Shown in pieces: positions 8,169-64,000 of a stretch of DNA of 64,000 nucleotides (position 1 is the stretch's first letter; each line of letters starts with the position of its first letter). Source of the stretch: an uncultured Bacilli bacterium. Lineage in GTDB: Bacteria; Bacillota_I; Bacilli_A; RF39; UBA660. The notes beneath the pieces are model-generated. The model made no database searches. It was not told the origin of the DNA and saw only the letters and a list, made by a program, of their open reading frames with translations. The stretch covers positions 372-64,371 of the forward strand of contig CAKOPK010000006.1 of NCBI GenBank assembly GCA_934099115.1. The letters are read 5' to 3'. The translations under genes and the position numbers were made by a program.

Positions 8169-9235
8169 AAAAGTTATTATTAATCATTATTCCTTTCTTA
8201 TTATGTGGTTGTTATGATTATAACGAATTAAATGATTTAGCCATCATCTCTGGAGTTGCTATCGATTATATAAATGAAGAATATGTAGTAACATTTGAAG
8301 TATTGCTTACTAAAAAGCAAGGAGAAGAACAATCTAGTACTGGTTCTTATACAATAAGTAGTAAAGCAAATACTGTTTATGAAGCTTTTGCTAAAAATGG
8401 TAAAAGCATTGAAAAAGTACCCTATTTTGACCATATAGAAACTGTAATTATTAGTGAAGATATAGCAAGAAATCACCTAGAAGAAGTAAGTGAATATCTA
8501 ATTAGAAGTTCTAAATTTCGTAATGAATTTTACATAGTAATAAGTACTACAGAAGCTAAAGATTTACTAAATAATACTAGTGAAGAAGTAAATGTTGTAT
8601 CTTCCTATATTGTAGGATTACTAGAGAACAATAATAGAACCTTAAGTGCAGCTTACTATGCTCCTTTTGTAGAAGTATTAAGTAATATATTGTCAAAAAG
8701 AGAAGATGCTATTCTATCTACTTTTAGTCTAGATGATGATAAAATAATTTTATCAGGTATGGGATTACTTCACAATTATGAATTAAAAGAAATATTAAAC
8801 TTAGAAGATGCTTCGATCATAAACTTATTAAATAATTTTCATGCCAATACTACTTCTTTTGTAAGTACTTGTGATAAAGGAAAGACTGTTATTACAGTTT
8901 ATGATTCTAAATTTGATGTTTTAGAAGAAAAAGACAAAATATCTGTAAAAGCAAGTATTAATGCCCGTATTCAAGAAGATAATTGTGATTATAATCTAAA
9001 AGATATAAATTCTTATCAAGAATTACAAAAAAAATTCCAAAAAATTATGGAAAATAGAATAAATCATGTAATAAAAATATTACAAGATAATAAAACAGAT
9101 GTTTTAAAACTAAGATCTAAGTTTTATAAAAAATATCGCTATGATGATAATGATGCATGGCTAAATAAAAACATAGATTATAATATCGATTTAAAAATAA
9201 ATAAAAAAGGATTAATCTTTGATTTAGAAGAATAG
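8165..9235 (+). CDS. Ger(x)C-family germination lipoprotein (C-subunit)
   Basis: Lipobox LLCGC followed by YDYNELNDLAIISGVAIDY, typical of GerAC. Overlaps the A-subunit stop by 4 nt. Confidence 0.88.
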   Translation: MKKLLLIIIPFLLCGCYDYNELNDLAIISGVAIDYINEEYVVTFEVLLTKKQGEEQSSTGSYTISSKANTVYEAFAKNGKSIEKVPYFDHIETVIISEDIARNHLEEVSEYLIRSSKFRNEFYIVISTTEAKDLLNNTSEEVNVVSSYIVGLLENNNRTLSAAYYAPFVEVLSNILSKREDAILSTFSLDDDKIILSGMGLLHNYELKEILNLEDASIINLLNNFHANTTSFVSTCDKGKTVITVYDSKFDVLEEKDKISVKASINARIQEDNCDYNLKDINSYQELQKKFQKIMENRINHVIKILQDNKTDVLKLRSKFYKKYRYDDNDAWLNKNIDYNIDLKINKKGLIFDLEE

Positions 9236-38730: not shown

Positions 38731-38755
38731 AAAAAAAAGAAGAAAAAATCTTCTT
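38731..38755 (-). terminator. Rho-independent terminator of paralog A
   Basis: Stem AAGAAGA / TCTTCTT overlapping the stop codon, followed by a long T-run on the minus strand. Confidence 0.6.
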
Positions 38756-40091
38756 AAGAAACTATATAGGGATTAGAACTAGTACCAGATCCTCCTGAAA
38801 AAATAGTGTCTGCTTTTAGATTAATTACAGGACGGACCCCCCGCACTCTGTCATCTACAGCACCAGCACCAAAGAGACCAGAAGAATATACAAGAAATTC
38901 ACCTGTTGGAGCTGCTACATTTGGATTAAAGTAAAATGGTGACATAGTCCAGTAATAACCACCTGTATATAAATAATAACCTGAGTTATTTGTTGCATAT
39001 ACTCCTCCTGCATATACAACTTCATCGGCTGTTATTAAGCCTACTGGTGTTGTAAATTTGTCTTCTGTGTCTACACATTTCAGAGTTGGTGTTTTATTAA
39101 ATATTAATCTTACATATGGAGCATAAAATGTTAGGGTATTACCAGTTCCTCCACTTCCGTTTATGTTATGTTCACTAGTACTAGGTGTTCTATCATTACA
39201 GAAATTTGCTCCTCCTCCGGTTGCTATACTACTTGCATAATTACTTAAGGCATTATTATACCAATTGTCCAGTACTTCTTTGATGGTACTATTTGTTCCT
39301 TTCCCATGCACTTGATTATTAGTATATTGGTATCCTACATACATGTTGTTGTTATAACTACTATTAAATGCACTCGTTCCTATTTGTGTGCCTGTTCCAG
39401 TTGTATTGGCGCTGGTTCCTTGATAAATCATTCGGATTGTTCCATCGCCATTGATTCTGATTATTCTCCAATAGAATCCTCCAAACTTTACCCAGTTATC
39501 GCTTGGATTTCCTGCAAAATAATAAGTTTCTCCATAGTCATCATACTGAGTACTATTTAAAGACTTATAAATGACTCCTGTTGTTGTATCAGTCACAATT
39601 GAATCAAAATTAGACCTGGTTTTCCATGTGTTCATGTTTGCCATTATAGCTTCACAAGAGACTCCTTTACATGTATATGGCTTTTTATCAAAATACAAAT
39701 AACACTTCGTTCCTTTAGTAGTTAGATTATCTAATAAAATCTTACCATTACTATAATTAAAAGTAATAGAATAATCTCTATTTCCATTTACTGCACAATA
39801 ACTTTTATCAGAATTTAAATTATAACCACTTTGTGGTACTGTATCTGTTCCTTTATACGTTCCATTATCTTCAATATACATAGATACTAAATTTAAATCT
39901 GGAACTGTATAATTAATAGTTCCTCTAGCTAGTTCAATACTTTGTGTAGTTCTATACTTAGCTCTAGAAGTTAATTGTACTACCGTTACAATTACTGCTA
40001 TAAACACTAATAAAATTCCTCCATACTTCTTTAACTCATTTCTTTTTAATGTTTCTATTTTCATTTCTCTAACCTCTCTTAGAATTCTCAT
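38754..40091 (-). CDS. Membrane-anchored extracytoplasmic protein of unknown function, paralog A
   Basis: N-terminal TM segment (GGILLVFIAVIVTVV). Conserved blocks are SRAKYRTTQSIELARGTINYTVPDLNLVSMYIEDNG, NWVKFGGFYWRIIRINGDGTIRMIY, GLITADE, YWTMSP and GVRPVINL. An alternative start is MKIETL at 40064. Confidence 0.8.
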   Translation of the reverse strand: MRILREVREMKIETLKRNELKKYGGILLVFIAVIVTVVQLTSRAKYRTTQSIELARGTINYTVPDLNLVSMYIEDNGTYKGTDTVPQSGYNLNSDKSYCAVNGNRDYSITFNYSNGKILLDNLTTKGTKCYLYFDKKPYTCKGVSCEAIMANMNTWKTRSNFDSIVTDTTTGVIYKSLNSTQYDDYGETYYFAGNPSDNWVKFGGFYWRIIRINGDGTIRMIYQGTSANTTGTGTQIGTSAFNSSYNNNMYVGYQYTNNQVHGKGTNSTIKEVLDNWYNNALSNYASSIATGGGANFCNDRTPSTSEHNINGSGGTGNTLTFYAPYVRLIFNKTPTLKCVDTEDKFTTPVGLITADEVVYAGGVYATNNSGYYLYTGGYYWTMSPFYFNPNVAAPTGEFLVYSSGLFGAGAVDDRVRGVRPVINLKADTIFSGGSGTSSNPYIVS

Positions 40092-40701: not shown

Positions 40702-42039
40702 TCAAGTCACTACATAAGGGTCTAATGCAGTACCTAAACCAGTAAACTGAATATCTTTTCTTAAATTAATAACCGGTCTAACACCGTTTCCACCATGTGC
40801 ATAAGGTGCACCTATTGCCCCACTTAAAGTCATATAAAAAACAAGGGCATAACCATAAGTATCAAAAATGCATGGAGACATACTCCAAGAAGTCTTGTTA
40901 TTATACAAATAATAATTTAAATTGTTAATCTGATTGACCCCACCAGCATAAGCCATTTCATCAACTGTAATTAGACCTATGGGAGTATCTATTCTATCAT
41001 TTATATCTACACAATTAAATATTGGATTTTTATAAACATCTAATCTTAAATGGGGAGCATAATAAGTTAAAGTCTTCCCCGTTCCTCCTGTATTATTTAA
41101 AGAACTATCATTTGTAGAGGGTTGTCTGTCATTACAGAAAGTTGCTCCCTCACCAGTTGCTATATAACTTGTATAGCCACTTAAATTGCTACTATACCAA
41201 TTATCAAGCGCTTCTTTAACAGCACTATTTGCTCCTCTACCATGGACTTCTCCATTTGTATATTGAAACCCTACATACATATTATCATTAGCTAAAGCAC
41301 TAGCAAAAGCACTCTCTCCTATTTGAGTAGTCTCTCCTGTTTGATCTGTCGTTGGTCCATTATAAATCATTCTAATAGTACCATCGCCATTTATTCTGAT
41401 AATTCTCCAATAATATCCTCCAAACTTTACCCAATTGTCTGTTGGTGCTCCTGCAAAATAATAAGTTGCTCCATAATCATCATATTGAGTACTATCTAAT
41501 GATTTATAAATAACCCCTGAAGTTGCATCAGTAAGTGCTATTGAAAAGTCATTTCTCGTTTTTATGGTATTGATATTAGCCAAAATTGATTCGCACGAAA
41601 TTCCATTACATTGATAACTATCAAAATATAAATAACATTTTGTTCCTTTTTTACCTAAGCCATATACATTTATTAATTTATTTTCATAGCCAAAAGTTAT
41701 AGAACTATCTTTATTTCCATTTACTGCACAATAACTTTTATCTTGGTTTAATTTATAACCATTTGATGGAACTGTATCACTTGCCTTATATTCTCCATTA
41801 TCTTCAATATACATAGATACTAAATTTAAATCTGGTACTGTATAATTAATTGTTCCTCTTGCTAGTTCAATACTCTGTGTAGTTCTATACTTAGCTCTAG
41901 ATGTATTAAAAATTAATAAGGTAAGAAGCATAACTCCACATATAATTCCTATATAAAAATACTTTTTCTTTTTTTCAAAAGCATAAAATCTTAACTTTTT
42001 CATTCTTAAAACTCCTTCATTTATTCTAATGCAAGCCAC
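40702..42039 (-). CDS. Membrane-anchored extracytoplasmic protein of unknown function, paralog B
   Basis: Same length (445 aa) and same conserved blocks as paralog A. An alternative start is MKKLRF at 42003. Confidence 0.8.
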   Translation of the reverse strand: MACIRINEGVLRMKKLRFYAFEKKKKYFYIGIICGVMLLTLLIFNTSRAKYRTTQSIELARGTINYTVPDLNLVSMYIEDNGEYKASDTVPSNGYKLNQDKSYCAVNGNKDSSITFGYENKLINVYGLGKKGTKCYLYFDSYQCNGISCESILANINTIKTRNDFSIALTDATSGVIYKSLDSTQYDDYGATYYFAGAPTDNWVKFGGYYWRIIRINGDGTIRMIYNGPTTDQTGETTQIGESAFASALANDNMYVGFQYTNGEVHGRGANSAVKEALDNWYSSNLSGYTSYIATGEGATFCNDRQPSTNDSSLNNTGGTGKTLTYYAPHLRLDVYKNPIFNCVDINDRIDTPIGLITVDEMAYAGGVNQINNLNYYLYNNKTSWSMSPCIFDTYGYALVFYMTLSGAIGAPYAHGGNGVRPVINLRKDIQFTGLGTALDPYVVT

Positions 42040-57283: not shown

Positions 57284-58252
57284 CTATTTGCGCTTTAAAA
57301 TTAAAGCATCACTAACAGTATTAGAAGTTTTTGAAACCTCTATATGAGGAAAAGAAATAATTTCCTCATTCTCCAAATCATTTAAAGTAAGACTAGAAGT
57401 TATAATTAAATGATTTAAATAAGATTGTGTTCTATTAATAAATATTCGGTAAAGATATGCTAAAGCAAGTACCCCATCTTCCCTAACATGTTTTTCCATG
57501 TTTTTAGAATATTCTCTTAACTCTTCATACTTCCACATATAACCCCAAGACTTATAAAAATAATCTGCAATATTAGACAGTAGTACTAAATCATATTCTT
57601 TTTTTAAATGTGTAGGTAAAGAAAAACAATTAATATTTGCAAAACTAATTTTAGCTTTTAATAAATTAATACGAACTTGATTATAAGTCTCTTCGTTTTC
57701 TAAATATTTATTTTTATGAATAATTTGATATAGACTAGGTCTATTTATTGTAGTCATTTGAAATAAAGGCAAATAAGTATGTGTTAATTTCACTTCTCGA
57801 TAATAAAAATCTCTAATAGAAAGCCAATAAATACGATATTTTAAATCCATATTAGGTAATAATACTGTAATATAATCCATAACTTTCTCAAATGAAGTTT
57901 CTTTACTAACTAAATCCGTCATAAATTCTAAATATTCTATATATGAAAAAGTCCGTATCGCCGCTGCTTTTAAACCAAAAGCAAAATATTCTGTAAGTTT
58001 ATTTGTATCAAAAGTATCAATATCAAGTATTCCATACGCTAAAAGATTAAAAACTTGATCTCCACTACCTAAAACAGTTAAAGCCTGTTTATAAGTAGAT
58101 TTTACAATACCAGCTAAACTACTATCTAAATTTTCGTTTGTTAAAGAATATACTTTCTGATATTCACTAAATGAATCATCAAAATTATATACTTTTCCCG
58201 CTTCTAACTGTTTTGCTATTAATTTTTTAGTATTAATAATTGCTTCTTTCAT
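57284..58252 (-). CDS. Hypothetical protein, possibly DUF3419/BtaA-like SAM-dependent enzyme
   Basis: The pattern LTVLGSGDQVFNLL...IDTFDTNKLTEYFAFGLKAAAIRTFSYIEYLEF resembles the N-terminal half of DUF3419 proteins (from memory). Confidence 0.45.
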   Translation of the reverse strand: MKEAIINTKKLIAKQLEAGKVYNFDDSFSEYQKVYSLTNENLDSSLAGIVKSTYKQALTVLGSGDQVFNLLAYGILDIDTFDTNKLTEYFAFGLKAAAIRTFSYIEYLEFMTDLVSKETSFEKVMDYITVLLPNMDLKYRIYWLSIRDFYYREVKLTHTYLPLFQMTTINRPSLYQIIHKNKYLENEETYNQVRINLLKAKISFANINCFSLPTHLKKEYDLVLLSNIADYFYKSWGYMWKYEELREYSKNMEKHVREDGVLALAYLYRIFINRTQSYLNHLIITSSLTLNDLENEEIISFPHIEVSKTSNTVSDALILKRK

Positions 58253-58475: not shown

Positions 58476-60137
58476 TTACAAGTTTTTATTTTTAAAAATT
58501 TCTACTCTTTTTAACATTCTTTCTTTTCCTAAAATTTGCATTATATCATACAAATTAGGAGTAACTGAACTAGTAGTTAATACAACTCTCATTGCACACG
58601 TAAAATCTGCAATACTACCCTTATAAGCCTCTTTATTTTCTTTATAAGCCTTCATATCACTCGCATACCCTAGTTGTTCACATAATTCTTTAATCTTTTG
58701 AAACCATACATCTTGAGTATCATTAGAATCATAATAAGCATCTAAATATTGATTCATAATATTTAAAATTTCTTCTTTATCTTGAATTAAGCCAAAATCA
58801 TAAGTTAAATCTTTATTCCATTCTTCATCATATAAATACCATATTTTAGCAAAAATAGAAGAATAATTTTCATAATCTTTCCTTGGTTTCTTACATTCTC
58901 TTTCAATATTTAAGAATGCAATAGTATCCTCCTTATGATTAACTAATAAACTAGCTACTGCCTCATCATACTTCTTAGCCCAAACAAGATATTCTTGATA
59001 TAAGTCCACAGCTTTCATCTTAGAAATATAATTTTTAGATATATTATCTAATTTATCTAAGTCAAATAAAGCACCACTAGAACTCATTTTTTTAGGACTA
59101 AAAGGAAATTCATAAAAAGGAGTATCAGGATGATTAGTTCTCCATTCTTCATAATTAGAATTAGCAATAGTAAGCACTGCATCTATAACAGCTAATATTG
59201 GATATCCTTTTTCTTCATAAAAGAACATCAATGCCTCTGGATCTTTTCTCTTACTAATCTTACGAATAGTATCTCCATCTTTCTTTAATATTAAAGATGT
59301 ATGAATATATTTAGGCATCTTATAACCAAAAGCTTTAAATAACTCATAATGAAGAGGAACACTACTCATCCATTCTTCTCCACGCACAACATGAGTAGTG
59401 CGCATTAAATGGTCATCTACTAAATGGGCAAAATGATAAGTTGGAAGTAAATTTTCACTCTTCATAATAGGAACATCAATATCATTCTCTGGAAATTCAA
59501 TTTTACCTTTTGTTAAATCTTCAAAAACAAATTTTTTATTAAAATCCCCTTCAGATTTAAAACGAATAACAAACTTTTCTCCAGCCTCTATCTTTTTAGC
59601 AGCCTCATCCGGTGTTAAATAACGATACTTTGCATAACGTCCATAAATACCAATTCTTTTTTTACTTTTAGCTTGATACTCTCTAATCTCTGTCAATTCT
59701 TCTGGAGTTAAAAAACAAGGATACGCTCTTCCAATAGAAATTAAATGTTTAATAAAAGCATGATAAATTTCCATTCTCTCACTTTGAATATATGGTCCAT
59801 AATTTCCAACCGTTTTACCATCATATTCATATTCATCAGGAGCAATATGATAATAATTTAAAATATGATGAATAAAAGGAACTGCCCCTTCTACACTTCT
59901 TTCTTGGTCTGTATCTTCATTCCTTAAAAAAAATACCCCTTTACTATTTTTAGCTAAAACATAATTAATAGTAGCACTCATCATATTTCCAATATGCATA
60001 AAACCTGTAGGACTTGGAGCAAAACGCGTAACTTTAGCCCCTTCTCCTAAATTTCTTTCTGGATAAATCTTCTCATAATCTTCTGGTGTTTTATGAATAT
60101 TAGGAAATATTAAATTTGCTAAATCTTGATATGTCAT
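58476..60137 (-). CDS. gltX: Glutamate--tRNA ligase (long clostridial-type form)
   Basis: RFAPSPTGFMHIGN (HIGH region), LRNEDTD, and a KMSKS-like KISKRK. The start is set at MTYQDLANLIFP. Confidence 0.9.
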   Translation of the reverse strand: MTYQDLANLIFPNIHKTPEDYEKIYPERNLGEGAKVTRFAPSPTGFMHIGNMMSATINYVLAKNSKGVFFLRNEDTDQERSVEGAVPFIHHILNYYHIAPDEYEYDGKTVGNYGPYIQSERMEIYHAFIKHLISIGRAYPCFLTPEELTEIREYQAKSKKRIGIYGRYAKYRYLTPDEAAKKIEAGEKFVIRFKSEGDFNKKFVFEDLTKGKIEFPENDIDVPIMKSENLLPTYHFAHLVDDHLMRTTHVVRGEEWMSSVPLHYELFKAFGYKMPKYIHTSLILKKDGDTIRKISKRKDPEALMFFYEEKGYPILAVIDAVLTIANSNYEEWRTNHPDTPFYEFPFSPKKMSSSGALFDLDKLDNISKNYISKMKAVDLYQEYLVWAKKYDEAVASLLVNHKEDTIAFLNIERECKKPRKDYENYSSIFAKIWYLYDEEWNKDLTYDFGLIQDKEEILNIMNQYLDAYYDSNDTQDVWFQKIKELCEQLGYASDMKAYKENKEAYKGSIADFTCAMRVVLTTSSVTPNLYDIMQILGKERMLKRVEIFKNKNL

Positions 60138-60192
60138 AAAATGTCCTTCTTTCGTACTACTATTATAACAAAACAAGACTCATTTAACAAGA

Positions 60193-60465
60193 TTAAGATA
60201 ATTTAAAAGGTTCTATTTCATATTCAATTGAATGAGCATATTCATGTTCATTTAATTTAAATAAAACATATTGATAAGCTTTTTCTAAACATATAATCGG
60301 TGTTAAATTATTTGTCTTATATTCACTAGATCGCATAATATAAGAAAATAAAAGATTATAATTATCGGGATTAACTAATATAAAATCAATAACCTCCTTT
60401 TGTTTATACTTATCTTGATAATCATAATTCATTAATAAATAAAATATATCTTTTTTTAAATCCAT
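60193..60465 (-). CDS. Hypothetical protein
   Basis: A 90-aa ORF directly downstream of the sigK 3' segment. No recognisable domain. Confidence 0.45.
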   Translation of the reverse strand: MDLKKDIFYLLMNYDYQDKYKQKEVIDFILVNPDNYNLLFSYIMRSSEYKTNNLTPIICLEKAYQYVLFKLNEHEYAHSIEYEIEPFKLS

Positions 60466-60473
60466 AAATCCCC

Positions 60474-60857
60474 CTATAAACTTTGATTATGTTTAATAAA
60501 TTCTCTTAATACTTTAGTAAGAGCTCTTTTCTCTATTCTAGAAACATAGCTTCTGGATATATGTAAGTTCTTAGCAATCTCTTTTTGTGTTTGTTCTTCT
60601 TCATTTAATAAGCCATATCTTTTTACTAATATTTCTTTTTCTCTACTAGTAAGAACTTTCAAATATTCTTTTAATCTTCCAATATTTTCCTGATTATGAA
60701 TTAAATCAGAAACATCTAATCCATCATCTTTAATAACTTCCATCAAACTAATCTCATTACCATCTTTATCATAACCAATAGAATCATTTAAACTAACGGT
60801 AATTCCACTTTTCTTATTACTACGAAAATACATCAAAATTTCATTTGCAATTGTCAC
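60474..60857 (-). CDS. sigK: 3' segment of split sigK (spoIIIC equivalent): sigma-K regions 3-4 only
   Basis: ...IANEILMYFRSNKKSGITVSLNDSIGYDKDGNEISLMEVIK...SREKEILVKRYGL...EQTQKEIAKNLHISRSYVSRIEKRALTKVLREF aligns, from memory, with B. subtilis SigK from ...CIENEILMHLRALKK to the C-terminus. An in-frame TAG lies immediately upstream. There is no RBS and no region 1-2. Confidence 0.85.
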   Translation of the reverse strand: MTIANEILMYFRSNKKSGITVSLNDSIGYDKDGNEISLMEVIKDDGLDVSDLIHNQENIGRLKEYLKVLTSREKEILVKRYGLLNEEEQTQKEIAKNLHISRSYVSRIEKRALTKVLREFIKHNQSL

Positions 60858-62526
60858 CTAATGGAAACTCAGTCATCTTAGCAGATTCTCTTGTTCCAGT
60901 AAGATTAAGTATCAAGTTTTCACCATCACTGTATGCAGATGATATTACTAATTTTATAAGCGTCCTTTTTTGTAATAAATCTAATTTGTTAAATTTATTG
61001 AAATATGAGTCAATTATATCAAGAACTATTTTAGCGTTTTCTGTATCGTCAATAATTGATGTTTTATCAATATTTAATTTTTTTACTTGTTCTTCAAGTT
61101 CAACATTAGCACCTTTAAGTTTTTGTATTTCCTTTGCTAAATCTGGTACTATATTTGCAGGAACCATTTTAATTTTATCAATTAGTGAAGCAATGTCTTT
61201 TTCGTTGTTTTTAATTTTCTTAGTTAAAGTATATAATTCATTTGACTTGGTATCTAATTTATTTAATTTACCACTTGCTAGGTCTTTTAATGCTTGATAG
61301 TATTCTCCTTTTGGATTTGCTAAACTTTTAATTACTTCTACTACTTTTTTATCGGCTTTATTTCCATTAAGGTTTTTATGATCACATTTGGTTCTTCTAC
61401 TTTTATCTTTTAATTCACATAAGTAAGAGAATCTTAATTCACCATCAACTTCACTTTGATATAGTTTAGGTCTCATAAAACTACCACAGTAACTACATTT
61501 AAGGATTCCGGATAATAATGCATTATTAACGGCTGGTTTTCTAAATCTTTTATTAGCACCTGATGCAAGTAAATTTTGTACTTCAACGTATTCTTTGCCA
61601 GTCCAGAATCCTTTATGTTTTCCAATAGCAACAATCCATTCGGAAATGGGATTATCATTTCTTCCTTTTTTTGTTATTTGGTTTGTTTTATTATATACCA
61701 TTAATCCGAATTTTCCGTTGTAATCTTTTTTATCTCCAACTACTAATGCTCCTTTTTCGGTGAAATAATCATAAGCATCAGAATCAGCCATTGAATAAAC
61801 TGGATTAGATAATATATTAACTAATGACCATCTAGTGAATATTCTGCCATTTTTAGTTTTTATATTATTTTGAATAGTATATGTTTCAAGCCCAGTTTGT
61901 GATTTTATTTCTAAATATTTGTCTTTAAGTAGATTTACAATTAATTTTTCTTCTGGAAGTTCTTTTAATTTGAAAAGTTTCTTTTTTTTGCCATCAATGG
62001 ATAAATTTTGTACTTCTTGAGATTTAAATCCAGTAGGAGGAGTACCTCCAAGCCATCTTCCGGTTTTTGCAAGTTCCATCATATTGTCTCTTATTCTTTC
62101 GGCTATAGTATCTCTCTCAAGTTGTGCAAATACCGAACATATTAGCATCATTGCTTTTCCCATGGGTGAGGTAGTATCAAAATCTTCTCTTATTGAAACA
62201 AATCCAACATTAAATGCTTGTAATTCATTTATTAAATTACAAAAGTCGCCAACATTTCTACTAACTCTATCTAATCTGTAGCAAGTAACTGAAGCAACTT
62301 TGTTTTCTCTGATTAAGTTCATCATCTTTTGAAAATCAGGTCTATTTGTATTAGCACCTGTAAATCCTTCGTCTGTAAAAACTTTAATATCTTCCTCTTT
62401 CAAATCAGGATATTTAGCTAATAGTTTTTGTTTGCACAAATCAACTTGATTTTCAACACTTTCTCCTTTTCCGGTGTACTTTGATTTACGACTATAAATA
62501 ATATGCCATCTATTTAATTCTTTCAT
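60841..62526 (-). CDS. Large serine recombinase (SpoIVCA-like, presumed sigK-element excisionase/integrase)
   Basis: N-terminal resolvase domain (IIYSRKSKYTGKGESVENQ, VTCYRLDRVSRN), a recombinase domain, a zinc ribbon (CSYCGSF...C...C) and a coiled-coil tail. Its stop codon lies inside the sigK junction. Confidence 0.92.
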   Translation of the reverse strand: MKELNRWHIIYSRKSKYTGKGESVENQVDLCKQKLLAKYPDLKEEDIKVFTDEGFTGANTNRPDFQKMMNLIRENKVASVTCYRLDRVSRNVGDFCNLINELQAFNVGFVSIREDFDTTSPMGKAMMLICSVFAQLERDTIAERIRDNMMELAKTGRWLGGTPPTGFKSQEVQNLSIDGKKKKLFKLKELPEEKLIVNLLKDKYLEIKSQTGLETYTIQNNIKTKNGRIFTRWSLVNILSNPVYSMADSDAYDYFTEKGALVVGDKKDYNGKFGLMVYNKTNQITKKGRNDNPISEWIVAIGKHKGFWTGKEYVEVQNLLASGANKRFRKPAVNNALLSGILKCSYCGSFMRPKLYQSEVDGELRFSYLCELKDKSRRTKCDHKNLNGNKADKKVVEVIKSLANPKGEYYQALKDLASGKLNKLDTKSNELYTLTKKIKNNEKDIASLIDKIKMVPANIVPDLAKEIQKLKGANVELEEQVKKLNIDKTSIIDDTENAKIVLDIIDSYFNKFNKLDLLQKRTLIKLVISSAYSDGENLILNLTGTRESAKMTEFPLGDNCK

Positions 62527-62554
62527 TATTTTCCTCCCATAGATTTATAAATAG

Positions 62555-62583
62555 TATGTGATACAATAATAATATATCACATA
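62555..62583. promoter_or_regulatory. Inverted repeat in the recombinase promoter region
   Basis: Perfect 9-bp inverted repeat TATGTGATA-N11-TATCACATA, 29-57 bp upstream of the recombinase ATG. On the coding strand the proximal arm contains CATACTAT, which resembles mother-cell sigma (E/K) -10 boxes. Confidence 0.35.
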
Positions 62584-62704
62584 GTGTCTTTATTTGATGA
62601 TGAAATTAAAAACAAAATAAAAAATTAGAACCAACCTTGATTCTAATTTTTCTCTATGTTGTTAAATGCATTTGTTGGATAGAGAGATTTGGAAATTATA
62701 CTGA

Positions 62705-63127
62705 TACTCAAAAGAAAATTATTTAAATGGTTCTTTAGGCAACTTATTACCATTGTCATTAAGTATAAATTTCAAATTACAAAATTATTCTTTTGATGAT
62801 AAAAAACAAGGATTGGATAGAACTAGAGGATATGAAAATGGTTCTCATTCTGAAATGCAAGTTGCTAAATGTTTGGAATGGACACCAGAAGAGATTCTAA
62901 ATCGTGGGTTAACAATGATTTCTTTTATGGAAAAACGATATGATTTCATTATTCCTAATAAAGCAGAAAGAATCAAAATGCTTGGATTAGATTTTATGAT
63001 AAAAGATGATGATAATGAAATTGATGTTACTATTCCTGAAAATAAAGAAATTGAAAATTCATCATTAAGGGAAGTAATATATGATGAAAATCAATTTAAT
63101 AAAATATCAAAAAAACACAAATGCTGA
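62705..63127 (+). pseudogene. Remnant of a DUF1524/GmrSD-type (HNH) nuclease gene, C-terminal part only
   Basis: The frame opens after the TGA at 62702 and reads ...GSLGNLLPLSLSINFKLQNYSFDDKKQG...GYENGSHSEMQVAKCLEWTPEEILNRGLTMISFMEKRY. This matches the C-terminal LGNL.LL...N..L.N..F..K block of DUF1524 proteins (from memory). No N-terminal DUF262 part is present. Confidence 0.55.
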
Positions 63128-63261
63128 AATTATGAATGTTTATAATGAATTGGATAATTATGTTATGTCATTAAATAGTGATATAAAGAAAAACACTACT
63201 TTTTTCATAAATATCCCCGAATAAAGATTATGAACAAATACATTAAAATACTACTAAATTA

Positions 63262-63294
63262 TCAAAAGAAAAAGAATCATTATACAAATGATTC
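63262..63294 (-). terminator. Rho-independent terminator after the 216-aa ORF
   Basis: Stem GAATCATT / AATGATTC with a 5-nt loop, followed by TTTTTCTTTT on the minus strand. Confidence 0.6.
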
Positions 63295-63310
63295 CTTTAT
63301 AATACCAAAA

Positions 63311-63961
63311 TTATCTAGTTCTAACTAAAGTATTAGCTTTTCTTGAACTTGAAAGTGCGTAACAATACATATCGTTTTCTGTGACATAATCTTCAGAATA
63401 ATTATCATCATTAAAACCTTTTTTAAATTCCTTAAGTTCACTTATTTTTTGACTTATATCCTTATCATAAATACTACCAAATATGCCAACAGTTATATTT
63501 TGTCCCTTATTATGTAATTGTTCCCAATTTTTAATATAAGATATATCATAAGGATTTTGCGTAATAAATCTATTAATAAATGACGTATCAAGAAACTCTA
63601 AATTATTAACACCATTTTTATTTTTCACTACAACAGGTATTCCTTCATAAACAGTAAAAGCAGCTTTAATCAAATCTCCTTTTGCCTTATTTACTCCATC
63701 AGGATATGGTGTTATCATAGTCATATTTGAATCTAATGCTATAGAGTCAAACACACCTTTATCAACTTCTACAGTTTTACCATTAATTTTAGGATATACA
63801 TCCATATACTCAATAAAAGAATTATAATGATTTCTCAAATTTTTACGAGCTATAATCCACTCACTAAACTCTCTTATAAATTCTTCTGAATTAATGTCAA
63901 CATGATTTACACCTGTAGCACTTTTAAATTGTTCAATTAATTTACTTAAATATTCTCCCAT
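63311..63961 (-). CDS. Hypothetical protein (cargo of the sigK element)
   Basis: A 216-aa ORF with an RBS (GGGGG) and a terminator. No recognisable domain. Confidence 0.55.
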   Translation of the reverse strand: MGEYLSKLIEQFKSATGVNHVDINSEEFIREFSEWIIARKNLRNHYNSFIEYMDVYPKINGKTVEVDKGVFDSIALDSNMTMITPYPDGVNKAKGDLIKAAFTVYEGIPVVVKNKNGVNNLEFLDTSFINRFITQNPYDISYIKNWEQLHNKGQNITVGIFGSIYDKDISQKISELKEFKKGFNDDNYSEDYVTENDMYCYALSSSRKANTLVRTR

Positions 63962-64000
63962 ATATAAAACCCCCTAAATTTTAAATTAATATTAATTGAT

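Follow-up and report, generated by a model that had tools for sequence, protein, structure and literature searches.

Skin elements, which split the gene sigK, were described by Galperin et al. (2022) in 15 Firmicutes, with sizes of 2.6–48 kb and 2–67 encoded proteins; the recombinase gene spoIVCA always lies at the element's edge, mostly just upstream of spoIIIC, and no further gene is common to all (bioRxiv 10.1101/2022.02.25.481979). In clostridia, these elements have been called an exception (Serrano et al. 2016). The present analysis concerns a 64,000-nt stretch of DNA (the window) from an uncultured gut bacterium with a genome of ~26% GC, where the 3′ half of sigK abuts the gene for a large serine recombinase (LSR). 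Very probably, the right end of a small sigK-intervening element of the skin type lies in the window, and the element's developmental excision would rejoin the gene. Records of the host's relatives are labelled Bacilli, 'Mycoplasma sp.' or Tenericutes metagenome-assembled genomes (MAGs); the element fits the published skin description, and its host belongs to an uncultured gut lineage outside the 15 Firmicutes of that set.

In C. difficile, the LSR CD1231 is produced constitutively from a σA promoter and its gene adjoins the 3′ half of sigK, while excision is kept within the mother cell by the σE/SpoIIID-dependent directionality factor CD1234 (PMC5025042). The directionality factor of the B. 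subtilis skin element, Skr, has 64 amino acids (aa), skr overlaps spoIVCA, and the general unit is given as attL–int–rdf–attR (PMC6957869). The gin element in gerE of Bacillus cereus ATCC 10987, with the proteins GirC and GirX, recombines within a 9-bp consensus, and its sporulation-specific excision has been proven; GirX, of 42 aa and with no known motif, came to notice through its conservation among elements (PMC5595907). The attachment sites of phage phiS63, the C. difficile element (skinCd) and skinCt lie at a similar position in sigK, the phiS63 core being GTAATGAAAT at nt 427 (PMC3442830).

The split in the window involves two overlapping genes:

60474–60857, minus strand: 3′ half of sigK, a spoIIIC-like open reading frame (ORF) of 127 aa with a GTG start, from the ORF list and SigK profiles

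60841–62526, minus strand: LSR gene, 561 aa, SpoIVCA/CD1231-like in role, from the ORF list and Pfam

In NCBIfam profile searches, the 127-aa product matched positions 111–233 of 235 in NF004471 (E 1.6e-45) and positions 109–226 of 227 in TIGR02846, and SigK models scored above SigE models. Pfam and NCBIfam scans found Sigma70_r4 and no region 2, and the fragment by itself reaches 155 bits, under the SigK cut-off of 252. The minus strand reads CAT TAG GTG ACA, with an in-frame TAG directly 5′ of the GTG at 60857 and no Shine–Dalgarno-like sequence seen ahead of it. It continues in the sigK frame as ...CAT TAG GTG ACA ATT GCA AAT GAA ATT TTG ATG..., and alignments with full-length SigK relatives begin at ...NEILM, which places the break at 60845–60857. 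Comparison of attL, attR and attB revealed that the first four codons of the ORF (GTG ACA ATT GCA, 60857–60846) derive from the element, and that only 60845 and downstream derive from sigK. No 5′ half was found inside the 64-kb window, where tblastn with a full-length relative returned residues 95–220 only. The initial annotation, made from the window alone, had described a C-terminal sigK half lacking region 2, an upstream in-frame stop, a missing ribosome-binding site (RBS) and a break in homology at this point, and all of these hold.

The LSR contains the Pfam domains Resolvase PF00239 (residues 9–158, E 3.4e-34), Recombinase PF07508 (191–321) and Zn_ribbon_recom PF13408 (337–400), the same three-domain architecture as the skinCd LSR. 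It matches the PHROG 95 integrase (E 2.4e-90) and, in a PDB sequence search, the catalytic domain of TP901-1 integrase. Residues Y11, R13 and S15 of the nucleophile motif Y-x-R-x-S are invariant across 14 aligned members of its clade. In the LSR frame, the minus strand ends ...TTT CCA TTA GGT GAC AAT TGC AAA TGA, with the stop at 60843–60841 as first annotated, and the gene overlaps the 3′ sigK ORF by 17 nt. The skinCd LSR is likewise the last gene, directly upstream of and co-oriented with the 3′ half (PMC5025042). The initial annotation had the co-oriented, flush layout right but singled it out as notable, whereas it is the usual skin layout (PMC5025042; bioRxiv 10.1101/2022.02.25.481979). 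The B. subtilis element differs, in that int runs opposite to sigK (PMC3442830) and skr overlaps spoIVCA, whereas here the LSR gene abuts the 3′ half.

The window's contig, ERZ27287262:k141_220103 (64,978 bp), runs just 286 nt past the window and ends inside the element. A look-up of the element's 216-aa protein found sister contigs L010 (ERZ27287018), L011 (NCBI MAG GCA_977044365.1) and L013 (Logan ERR7738239), which are collinear with the window at 99.5–99.7% identity over 4.9–10.7 kb. All three hold the complete locus, 5′ half–element–LSR–3′ half, with the sigK halves co-oriented. The order is MutL, two small helix-turn-helix (HTH) genes, the 5′ sigK half (116 aa, Sigma70_r2), ORFs of 54 aa, 64 aa (opposite strand), 176 aa and 216 aa, the 124/47-aa ORFs, the 561-aa LSR, the 3′ sigK half, a 90-aa ORF and GltX; in L011, a 273-aa N6/N4 methyltransferase takes the place of the 176-aa ORF. 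The element measures 4,824 bp in L010 and L013 and 4,895 bp in L011. At ~4.8 kb and ~6 ORFs, it contrasts with skinCd, of 19 genes (PMC5025042) and 14.6 kb (Galperin preprint), and with the B. subtilis skin, a 48-kb defective prophage. The portion within the window comprises:

60845–64000, minus strand: right-hand 3.16 kb of the sigK-intervening element, continuing off the window, collinear with L010/L100, L011 and L013

62753–63127, plus strand: element cargo ORF of 124 aa, from the ORF list, present in all conspecific copies

63081–63224: 47-aa ORF overlapping the 124-aa ORF, from the ORF list

63311–63961, minus strand: element cargo ORF of 216 aa, from the ORF list

Past the window, the sister strains carry the 176-aa ORF or N6/N4 methyltransferase, the 64-aa ORF, remnants of HTH genes and attL; the start of the 5′ sigK half is expected ~1.65 kb past position 64000. 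The exact 5′ half occurs on 22 contigs, one of which (L104; k141_251071, 11.3 kb) comes from the window's own sample and also carries the element's left end; in all 10 contigs displayed of the 22, the 5′ half runs into that left end. The exact 216-aa protein was found on 12 contigs, without exception inside the sigK element. The initial annotation had placed the 5′ half beyond position 64000, and it is present both in L104 and, 4.8 kb upstream of the 3′ half, in L010, L011 and L013. The rest of the element does lie there too, but it is short, ~4.8 kb for the whole in sister strains rather than a large prophage, with an IS-like (insertion sequence-like) insertion in addition in the window's strain. 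The 216-, 176-, 124- and 90-aa ORFs returned nothing useful from Pfam, NCBIfam, PHROGs or PADLOC; the 124-aa ORF has no Pfam, NCBIfam or PADLOC family and one weak match to PHROG 20721, a function-unknown family.

L104 and the window contig each end in ~140 nt unlike the sister strains, with imperfect inverted repeats TATAAAT[A/G]GAAA..TAAGTGTCC, and one 14-bp sequence, TTGATAGAAAAAAT, flanks both odd ends:

L104 7862–8002, and L012/L001 1–138 (~64148 in window numbering, just past 64000): IS-like insertion ends

On our reading, the 176-aa and 216-aa genes are separated by an IS-like insertion in the window's strain, which would explain the assembly break. A partial ORF at one end finishes in ...EEWINNYPRAMFDYKSSNELLLSI and a stop, an ending that we take to be reminiscent of IS30-family transposases. 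The window does come from a short-read metagenome assembly (k141_220103) whose contig breaks inside the element, as might be expected if the LSR–sigK junction were an assembly chimera. That explanation is close to inconceivable and already refuted as far as assemblies allow: the break is accounted for by the IS-like insertion, the identical junction recurs in independent assemblies, at least 10 in number, that stem from several studies and were made with several assemblers (contigs from ENA, Logan and NCBI MAGs), and the same LSR–sigK junction is found in at least 63 other species genomes.

Joining the two halves at the core in silico yields an in-frame 231-aa pro-SigK, ...TYVARCIENEILMYF..., which scores 317 bits against NF004471 (cut-off 252) and 303.3 bits against the equivalog model TIGR02846 (cut-off 298.65), end to end. 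Against SigE models it scores 218 and 206 bits, under their cut-offs. With the whole locus present in L010, L011 and L013 and the joined ORF above the SigK cut-offs, the skin-like configuration proposed in the initial annotation is upheld. The reconstructed protein begins MFFYLLNIIKDMLFFTGSYSNQVFPEPLS and has a good RBS ahead of its start; this N-terminus presumably resembles the pro-sequence region of B. subtilis. The locus shares with the B. subtilis skin element an LSR and a split sigK encoding pro-SigK. C. difficile SigK has no pro-sequence, whereas the one reconstructed here, on our own reading, has a B. subtilis-like one (MFFYLLNIIKDMLFFTGS followed by YSNQVFPEPLS).

In a related species (P0016/L112), an uninterrupted 220-aa sigK lies in DNA collinear with the reconstructed attB and in the neighbourhood YlbD_coat–YlbE-like–phosphatase–GTPase–MutL–HTH–HTH–sigK–...–GltX; judged by this collinearity, it is the empty site. 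Full-length SigK proteins of 72–77% identity are present in the database, and the whole genome of the host was not covered; both facts leave room for the 3′ fragment to be a dead duplicate or relic, with a separate intact sigK at work elsewhere. We consider this very improbable. No full-length match exceeds 77% identity, the closest ones stem from other samples, and the gene of P0016/L112 is the same syntenic locus in a different species. Both halves stand at the orthologous sigK locus, a matching 5′ half was recovered from the same sample, the 22 contigs with the exact 5′ half enter the element's left end wherever displayed, and the joined protein passes an equivalog-level SigK cut-off. Neither an element-free allele nor a second sigK, the finding that would have favoured a duplicate, was found for the window's species in protein-collection searches, which give indirect evidence.

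The junctions are defined by the following sites:

60837–60845, minus strand: attR core of 9 bp, AATGAAATT, identical at attL and attR in L010, L011 and L013

60849–60857, minus strand: element-side half-site GTGACAATT, whose partner AATTGTCAC comes from the opposite element end in reconstructed attP

The core is the short direct repeat, common to both junctions, that the initial annotation had predicted. In the conspecific contigs, attL reads ...GCTAGGTGCATTGAGAATGAAATTGTCACATCACGG... and attR reads ...CCATTAGGTGACAATTGCAAATGAAATTTTGATGTATTTT..., from which attB is reconstructed as ...GCTAGGTGCATTGAGAATGAAATTTTGATGTATTTT... and attP as ...GGTGACAATTGCAAATGAAATTGTCACATC..., with arms GTGACAATT-GCAAATGA-AATTGTCAC of imperfect dyad symmetry. 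The predicted junction strings are ...TGCATTGAGAATGAAATTTTGATG... for attB and ...GACAATTGCAAATGAAATTGTCAC... for attP, or ACTACTTATGTAGCTAGGTGCATTGAGAATGAAATTTTGATGTATTTTCGTAGTAATAAG and CTGAGTTTCCATTAGGTGACAATTGCAAATGAAATTGTCACATCACGGAAATGAAAGAAA, respectively, as 60-nt junctions. The attP inverted repeat GTGACAATT / AATTGTCAC centres on the AA of CAAATG. In the relative L003/L007, where both sigK halves and a ~12-kb element lie on one 217-kb contig, the shared core is just AAATG (5 bp), and the attP arms CCAACAAGTGA / TCACGTGTTGG centre on the same AA. Because the repeat centres there in both, the crossover dinucleotide is inferred to be the AA at 60845–60844, in the Asn codon of ...CIENEILM....

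The half-site GTGACAATT also encodes the last residues of the LSR (...GDNCK and stop), whose coding end lies 4 nt inside the 9-bp core; the last codons do overlap the presumed crossover site, as first annotated. Since this element-side arm forms both the start codons of the 3′ ORF and the last codons of the LSR, it accounts for the 17-nt overlap between them and for the C-terminus PxxDNxK conserved in the recombinase alignment. A change in the LSR C-terminus upon excision was considered and ruled out for this element, as the TGA lies inside the 9-bp core common to attR and attP; such a change would occur only in L003/L007, with its 5-bp core.

The occupied site differs from that of phiS63, whose core we map to the GNEI codons at residue 138 and near which the skinCd and skinCt sites are placed (PMC3442830); the site here is at residue 109 (Asn, ENEI), ~87 nt upstream. 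The junction of the B. subtilis skin element is presumably also at ...ENEILM.... Phage phiS63 of C. perfringens resembles the element in integrating into sigK, and its core GTAATGAAAT contains AATGAAAT (PMC3442830); it differs in being a 33.6-kb active siphovirus with int opposite to sigK and its core at nt 427 (GNEI) rather than at the ENEI codons. At 60760–60751 on the minus strand of the window, the GNEI codons read GTAATGAGAT, one mismatch from the phiS63 core; this corresponds to a second known sigK attachment site, unoccupied and ~87 nt downstream of the occupied one. A close phage relative of the LSR was sought and rejected, as the best phage integrases (Terrisporobacter phage TPELB_ph1, C. 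perfringens phage CP51 and Clostridium phage HM T) are 38–44% identical and have no sigK-like core beside int.

To survey the clade, an alignment of 14 recombinases was scanned against one genome per species from GTDB (185,579 species genomes), which gave at least 593 confirmed relatives, and the best 80 loci (42–94% identity) were kept. In at least 63 of these 80 best loci, the 3′ sigK half directly follows the LSR and starts at the same residue. Five more run off their contigs and are uninformative; the remaining 12 include two overlooked by the filter (L045 and L057) and two with sigK on the other strand (L090 and L091). The hosts are Bacilli, 'Mycoplasma sp.' and Tenericutes MAGs, Oscillospiraceae, Ruminococcaceae, Christensenellaceae, Paenibacillaceae and cultured Lacrimispora, among them L. 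xylanisolvens DSM 3808 (L085). Protein searches with either half returned mostly half-length proteins (119–135 or 105–145 aa) from MAGs labelled Bacilli and a minority of intact ones, and in alignments the break in split proteins always falls between ...ARCI(E/Q) and NEIL.... Both halves lie within the fetched flanks at 31 loci, where the element spans ~3.0–15.6 kb.

Two variants of the arrangement stand out. In a rabbit-gut Clostridia MAG (L024, 4509–7541), a ~3.0-kb element in sigK has three genes only, namely the conserved small gene described below (64 aa), a complete σ70-family gene (223 aa, ~31% identical to SigK) and the LSR gene, and thus carries its own sigma factor inside sigK. In L081 (3863–19476) and L061 (7686–15963), the LSR gene and the small gene each occur twice between the sigK halves, which suggests the tandem insertion of two elements into one site.

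Further comparison across the clade points to movement between hosts. L017 and L018 carry LSRs 93–94% identical to that of the window, while their SigK halves are only 58–66% identical to those of the window's species, and two JGI contigs with LSR DNA 92–93% identical share the same core, joined to different sigK 3′ halves. The elements of L003/L007 carry FtsK-like and Rep-like genes. From another sample, L109 (2309–6649) has the identical 5′ sigK half and element left end, followed by a 663-aa type IV secretion system (T4SS) coupling protein (T4SS-DNA_transf/TraG-D_C), three unknown ORFs and a methyltransferase, and has the appearance of a longer form of this element, of conjugative type, in the window's species; L010 keeps a methyltransferase remnant. 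On these comparisons, the element is mobile now or was recently, and the 4.8-kb form would be a deletion derivative of an integrative transfer element.

The same observations, namely near-identical LSRs beside divergent SigK, FtsK-like and Rep-like genes in L003/L007, and a T4SS coupling protein in the same-species variant, would suit an ordinary integrative mobile element that merely uses sigK as its att site, with excision tied to transfer or induction, sigK knocked out and a host that may not sporulate. The window's species also lacks a sporulation-type promoter motif 5′ of the small gene, as such an element might. We nevertheless regard this explanation as unlikely. Every copy examined, and dozens of further species with split genes, have intact reading frames in both halves, which argues that the gene is not dead. 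The 4.8-kb version is without any transfer genes, yet all 10 displayed contigs are occupied and no intact allele was found. The target is needed only in the terminal mother cell, like those of the proven skin, SPbeta and gin elements (PMC5025042, PMC4191935, PMC5595907). Mobility does not exclude developmental excision in any case, as SPbeta does both.

The region upstream of the LSR gene contains a candidate control site:

62551–62582, minus strand: putative LSR promoter/operator, read from the sequence, with a presumed function

An extended −10-like sequence, TGATATATT, at 62579–62571 lies within the inverted repeat GTGATA (62580–62575)...TATCAC (62563–62558), and an RBS, GGGAGG, follows at ~62537–62532. 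Across the clade, TGnTAnnnT occurs 5′ of the LSR in 40 of 79 cases, against 10.2 ± 3.1 in shuffles, and TGnTATAAT in 16 of 79, against 0.5; these sequences are kin to one another, and the extended −10 often lies within an inverted repeat. The enrichments suggest a promoter of the kind reported for CD1231, which is σA-type with inverted repeats. A generic scan of 60100–64000 for σ70 promoters and terminators did no better than shuffled sequence (27 versus 29.4 expected). The inverted repeat at 62558–62580 resembles the att arms GTGACAATT / AATTGTCAC (cf. 60849–60857), and comparable TGTGATATAAT...ATCACA repeats recur 5′ of the LSR in many clade members; that the LSR might bind its own promoter is pure speculation.

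When all ORFs of the 31 complete elements were clustered, one family only besides the LSR proved near-universal: a small protein of 51–100 aa (median 60), present in 30 of the 31 and usually encoded near attL on the strand opposite to sigK. The clade thereby differs from the Galperin set in having a second common gene, an ORF of ~60 aa. Its member in the window's species lies just outside the window:

L010 8743–8937, minus strand: small gene of 64 aa, MRVYVNYPVDKDG...

This ORF is a candidate recombination directionality factor (RDF), picked because of its conservation across elements, by the same logic as GirX. The gin element is similar in being a small, non-phage, gene-intervening element with a serine recombinase and a tiny motif-less factor; it differs in its target (gerE, not sigK), in having three recombinase genes and in its proven excision, whereas excision here is predicted from sequence. 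Skr of B. subtilis also has 64 aa; unlike skr, the candidate lies at the opposite element end from the LSR and is divergently oriented. By description, CD1234 is larger, at ~15 kDa. After excision, the small gene would lie across attP from the LSR gene, and an int–attP–rdf arrangement has been discussed for directionality factors (PMC6957869). Of 32 distinct sequences 5′ of the small gene, 15 contain the motif CATAnnnT, the −10 type of the mother-cell sigma factors (σE/σK promoters), as compared with 3.0 ± 1.6 in shuffles and 2 in the reverse complement; these sequences, too, are kin to one another.

The left end of the element also holds traces of a larger regulator. In L010, two 54-aa ORFs (8315–8479 and 8522–8686), both with GEQIKYYR, look like pieces of a double-HTH (XRE-type) gene that is intact at the left end of 16 of the 31 related elements, and the gene appears decayed in the window's species. 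A start for this gene within the 5′ sigK half (MYRKC... ORFs in several relatives) was not adopted, as conserved sigK/att-arm DNA in another frame explains that N-terminus; the gene caller puts the start within the element in L007. The two small XRE-type HTH genes (81 and 75–79 aa) directly 5′ of sigK in L100 (5414–5945) and L112 (4306–4837) belong to the host and not to the element, because they are present also beside the intact sigK of the relative. Two contigs from independent studies, L014 (1–650) and L015 (1–345), match the element at 100% identity beginning 95 bp inside attL; ahead of that point, the place of attL and the 5′ sigK half is taken by the C-terminus of an AEC transporter and an N-terminal Hydrolase_3 fragment. 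These may be copies that are rearranged or dead in some strains, or the element may stand in another context.

Elsewhere in the window, several minus-strand ORFs matched no family in the libraries scanned (subsets of Pfam, NCBIfam, PHROGs and PADLOC). They are the 90-aa ORF right after sigK (60193–60465), a chromosomal ORF at 57284–58252, and a paralogue-sized pair of 445-aa ORFs at 38754–40091 and 40702–42039.

The layout observed, attL–(small gene)–cargo–LSR–attR, permits a mechanism to be proposed from the B. subtilis skin element, skinCd and LSR biochemistry. The LSR would pair attL with attR and cut CAAATG, which lies within the shared AATGAAATT, at its central AA. The element would be released as a circle with attP; the attB left behind would restore the codons ...ARCIENEILMYF... 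and hence the in-frame 231-aa pro-SigK. C. difficile probably provides the model for directionality and timing: the LSR would be expressed from a housekeeping-type extended −10 promoter, and excision, by its likeness to skinCd, is expected to need a small element-encoded factor as its licence, the candidate being the 64-aa ORF beside attL. Excision is inferred to take place during sporulation, by analogy; if it were confined to a mother cell undergoing terminal differentiation, the element would persist in the spore.

Several observations weigh against developmental excision, or against parts of this scheme. The rejoined form has never been seen, as the exact reconstructed SigK, in four versions, was absent from a collection of 15 billion proteins, although this absence would be expected if assemblies reflect germ-line DNA. 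An exact scan for the predicted attB in JGI metagenomes gave 0 matches, which is uninformative in a collection without the window's species (a control scan with the element arm found two contigs only, both of other host species), and an exact scan for the predicted attP in IMG/VR also gave 0. L104 and the window contig are presumed to be linked because their IS ends match and a 14-bp target duplication is present, rather than by continuous sequence. Sporulation by the host is supported by three genes only: the pro-SigK-type sigK, a YlbD coat-protein gene and a SpoVD-like penicillin-binding protein scoring below its cut-off. As for the proposed factor, the 64-aa protein has no Pfam or PHROG family, CATAnnnT is absent 5′ of its gene in the window's species and nearest relative (L010, L017), and the enrichment tests involve related, non-independent sequences and are suggestive.

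The element is a further example of the well-known skin arrangement, with its principle unchanged. The additions are a very small, degenerate element, the breadth of its LSR clade in uncultured gut Firmicutes and a concrete candidate directionality factor. A broader proposal is advanced tentatively, with confidence a little below even: that this is a near-minimal, horizontally spreading 'sigK switch cassette' from a very large clade of sigK-specific LSRs, whose cognate RDF would be a previously unrecognised ~60-aa family encoded at the opposite element end, often with CATAnnnT. Were this true, sigK splitting during development would be common rather than exceptional in the gut's uncultured Clostridia and Bacilli, and one could study a new LSR/RDF pair whose 9-bp core is defined.

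For annotation, the two sigK halves in this host lineage represent one functional gene, rather than pseudogenes or a missing sigK. In the survey, dozens of uncultured species from Clostridia and Bacilli had this LSR–sigK layout as well. It is suggested that low-GC gut bacteria often labelled Mycoplasma or Tenericutes sporulate, using DNA excision as a late mother-cell checkpoint.

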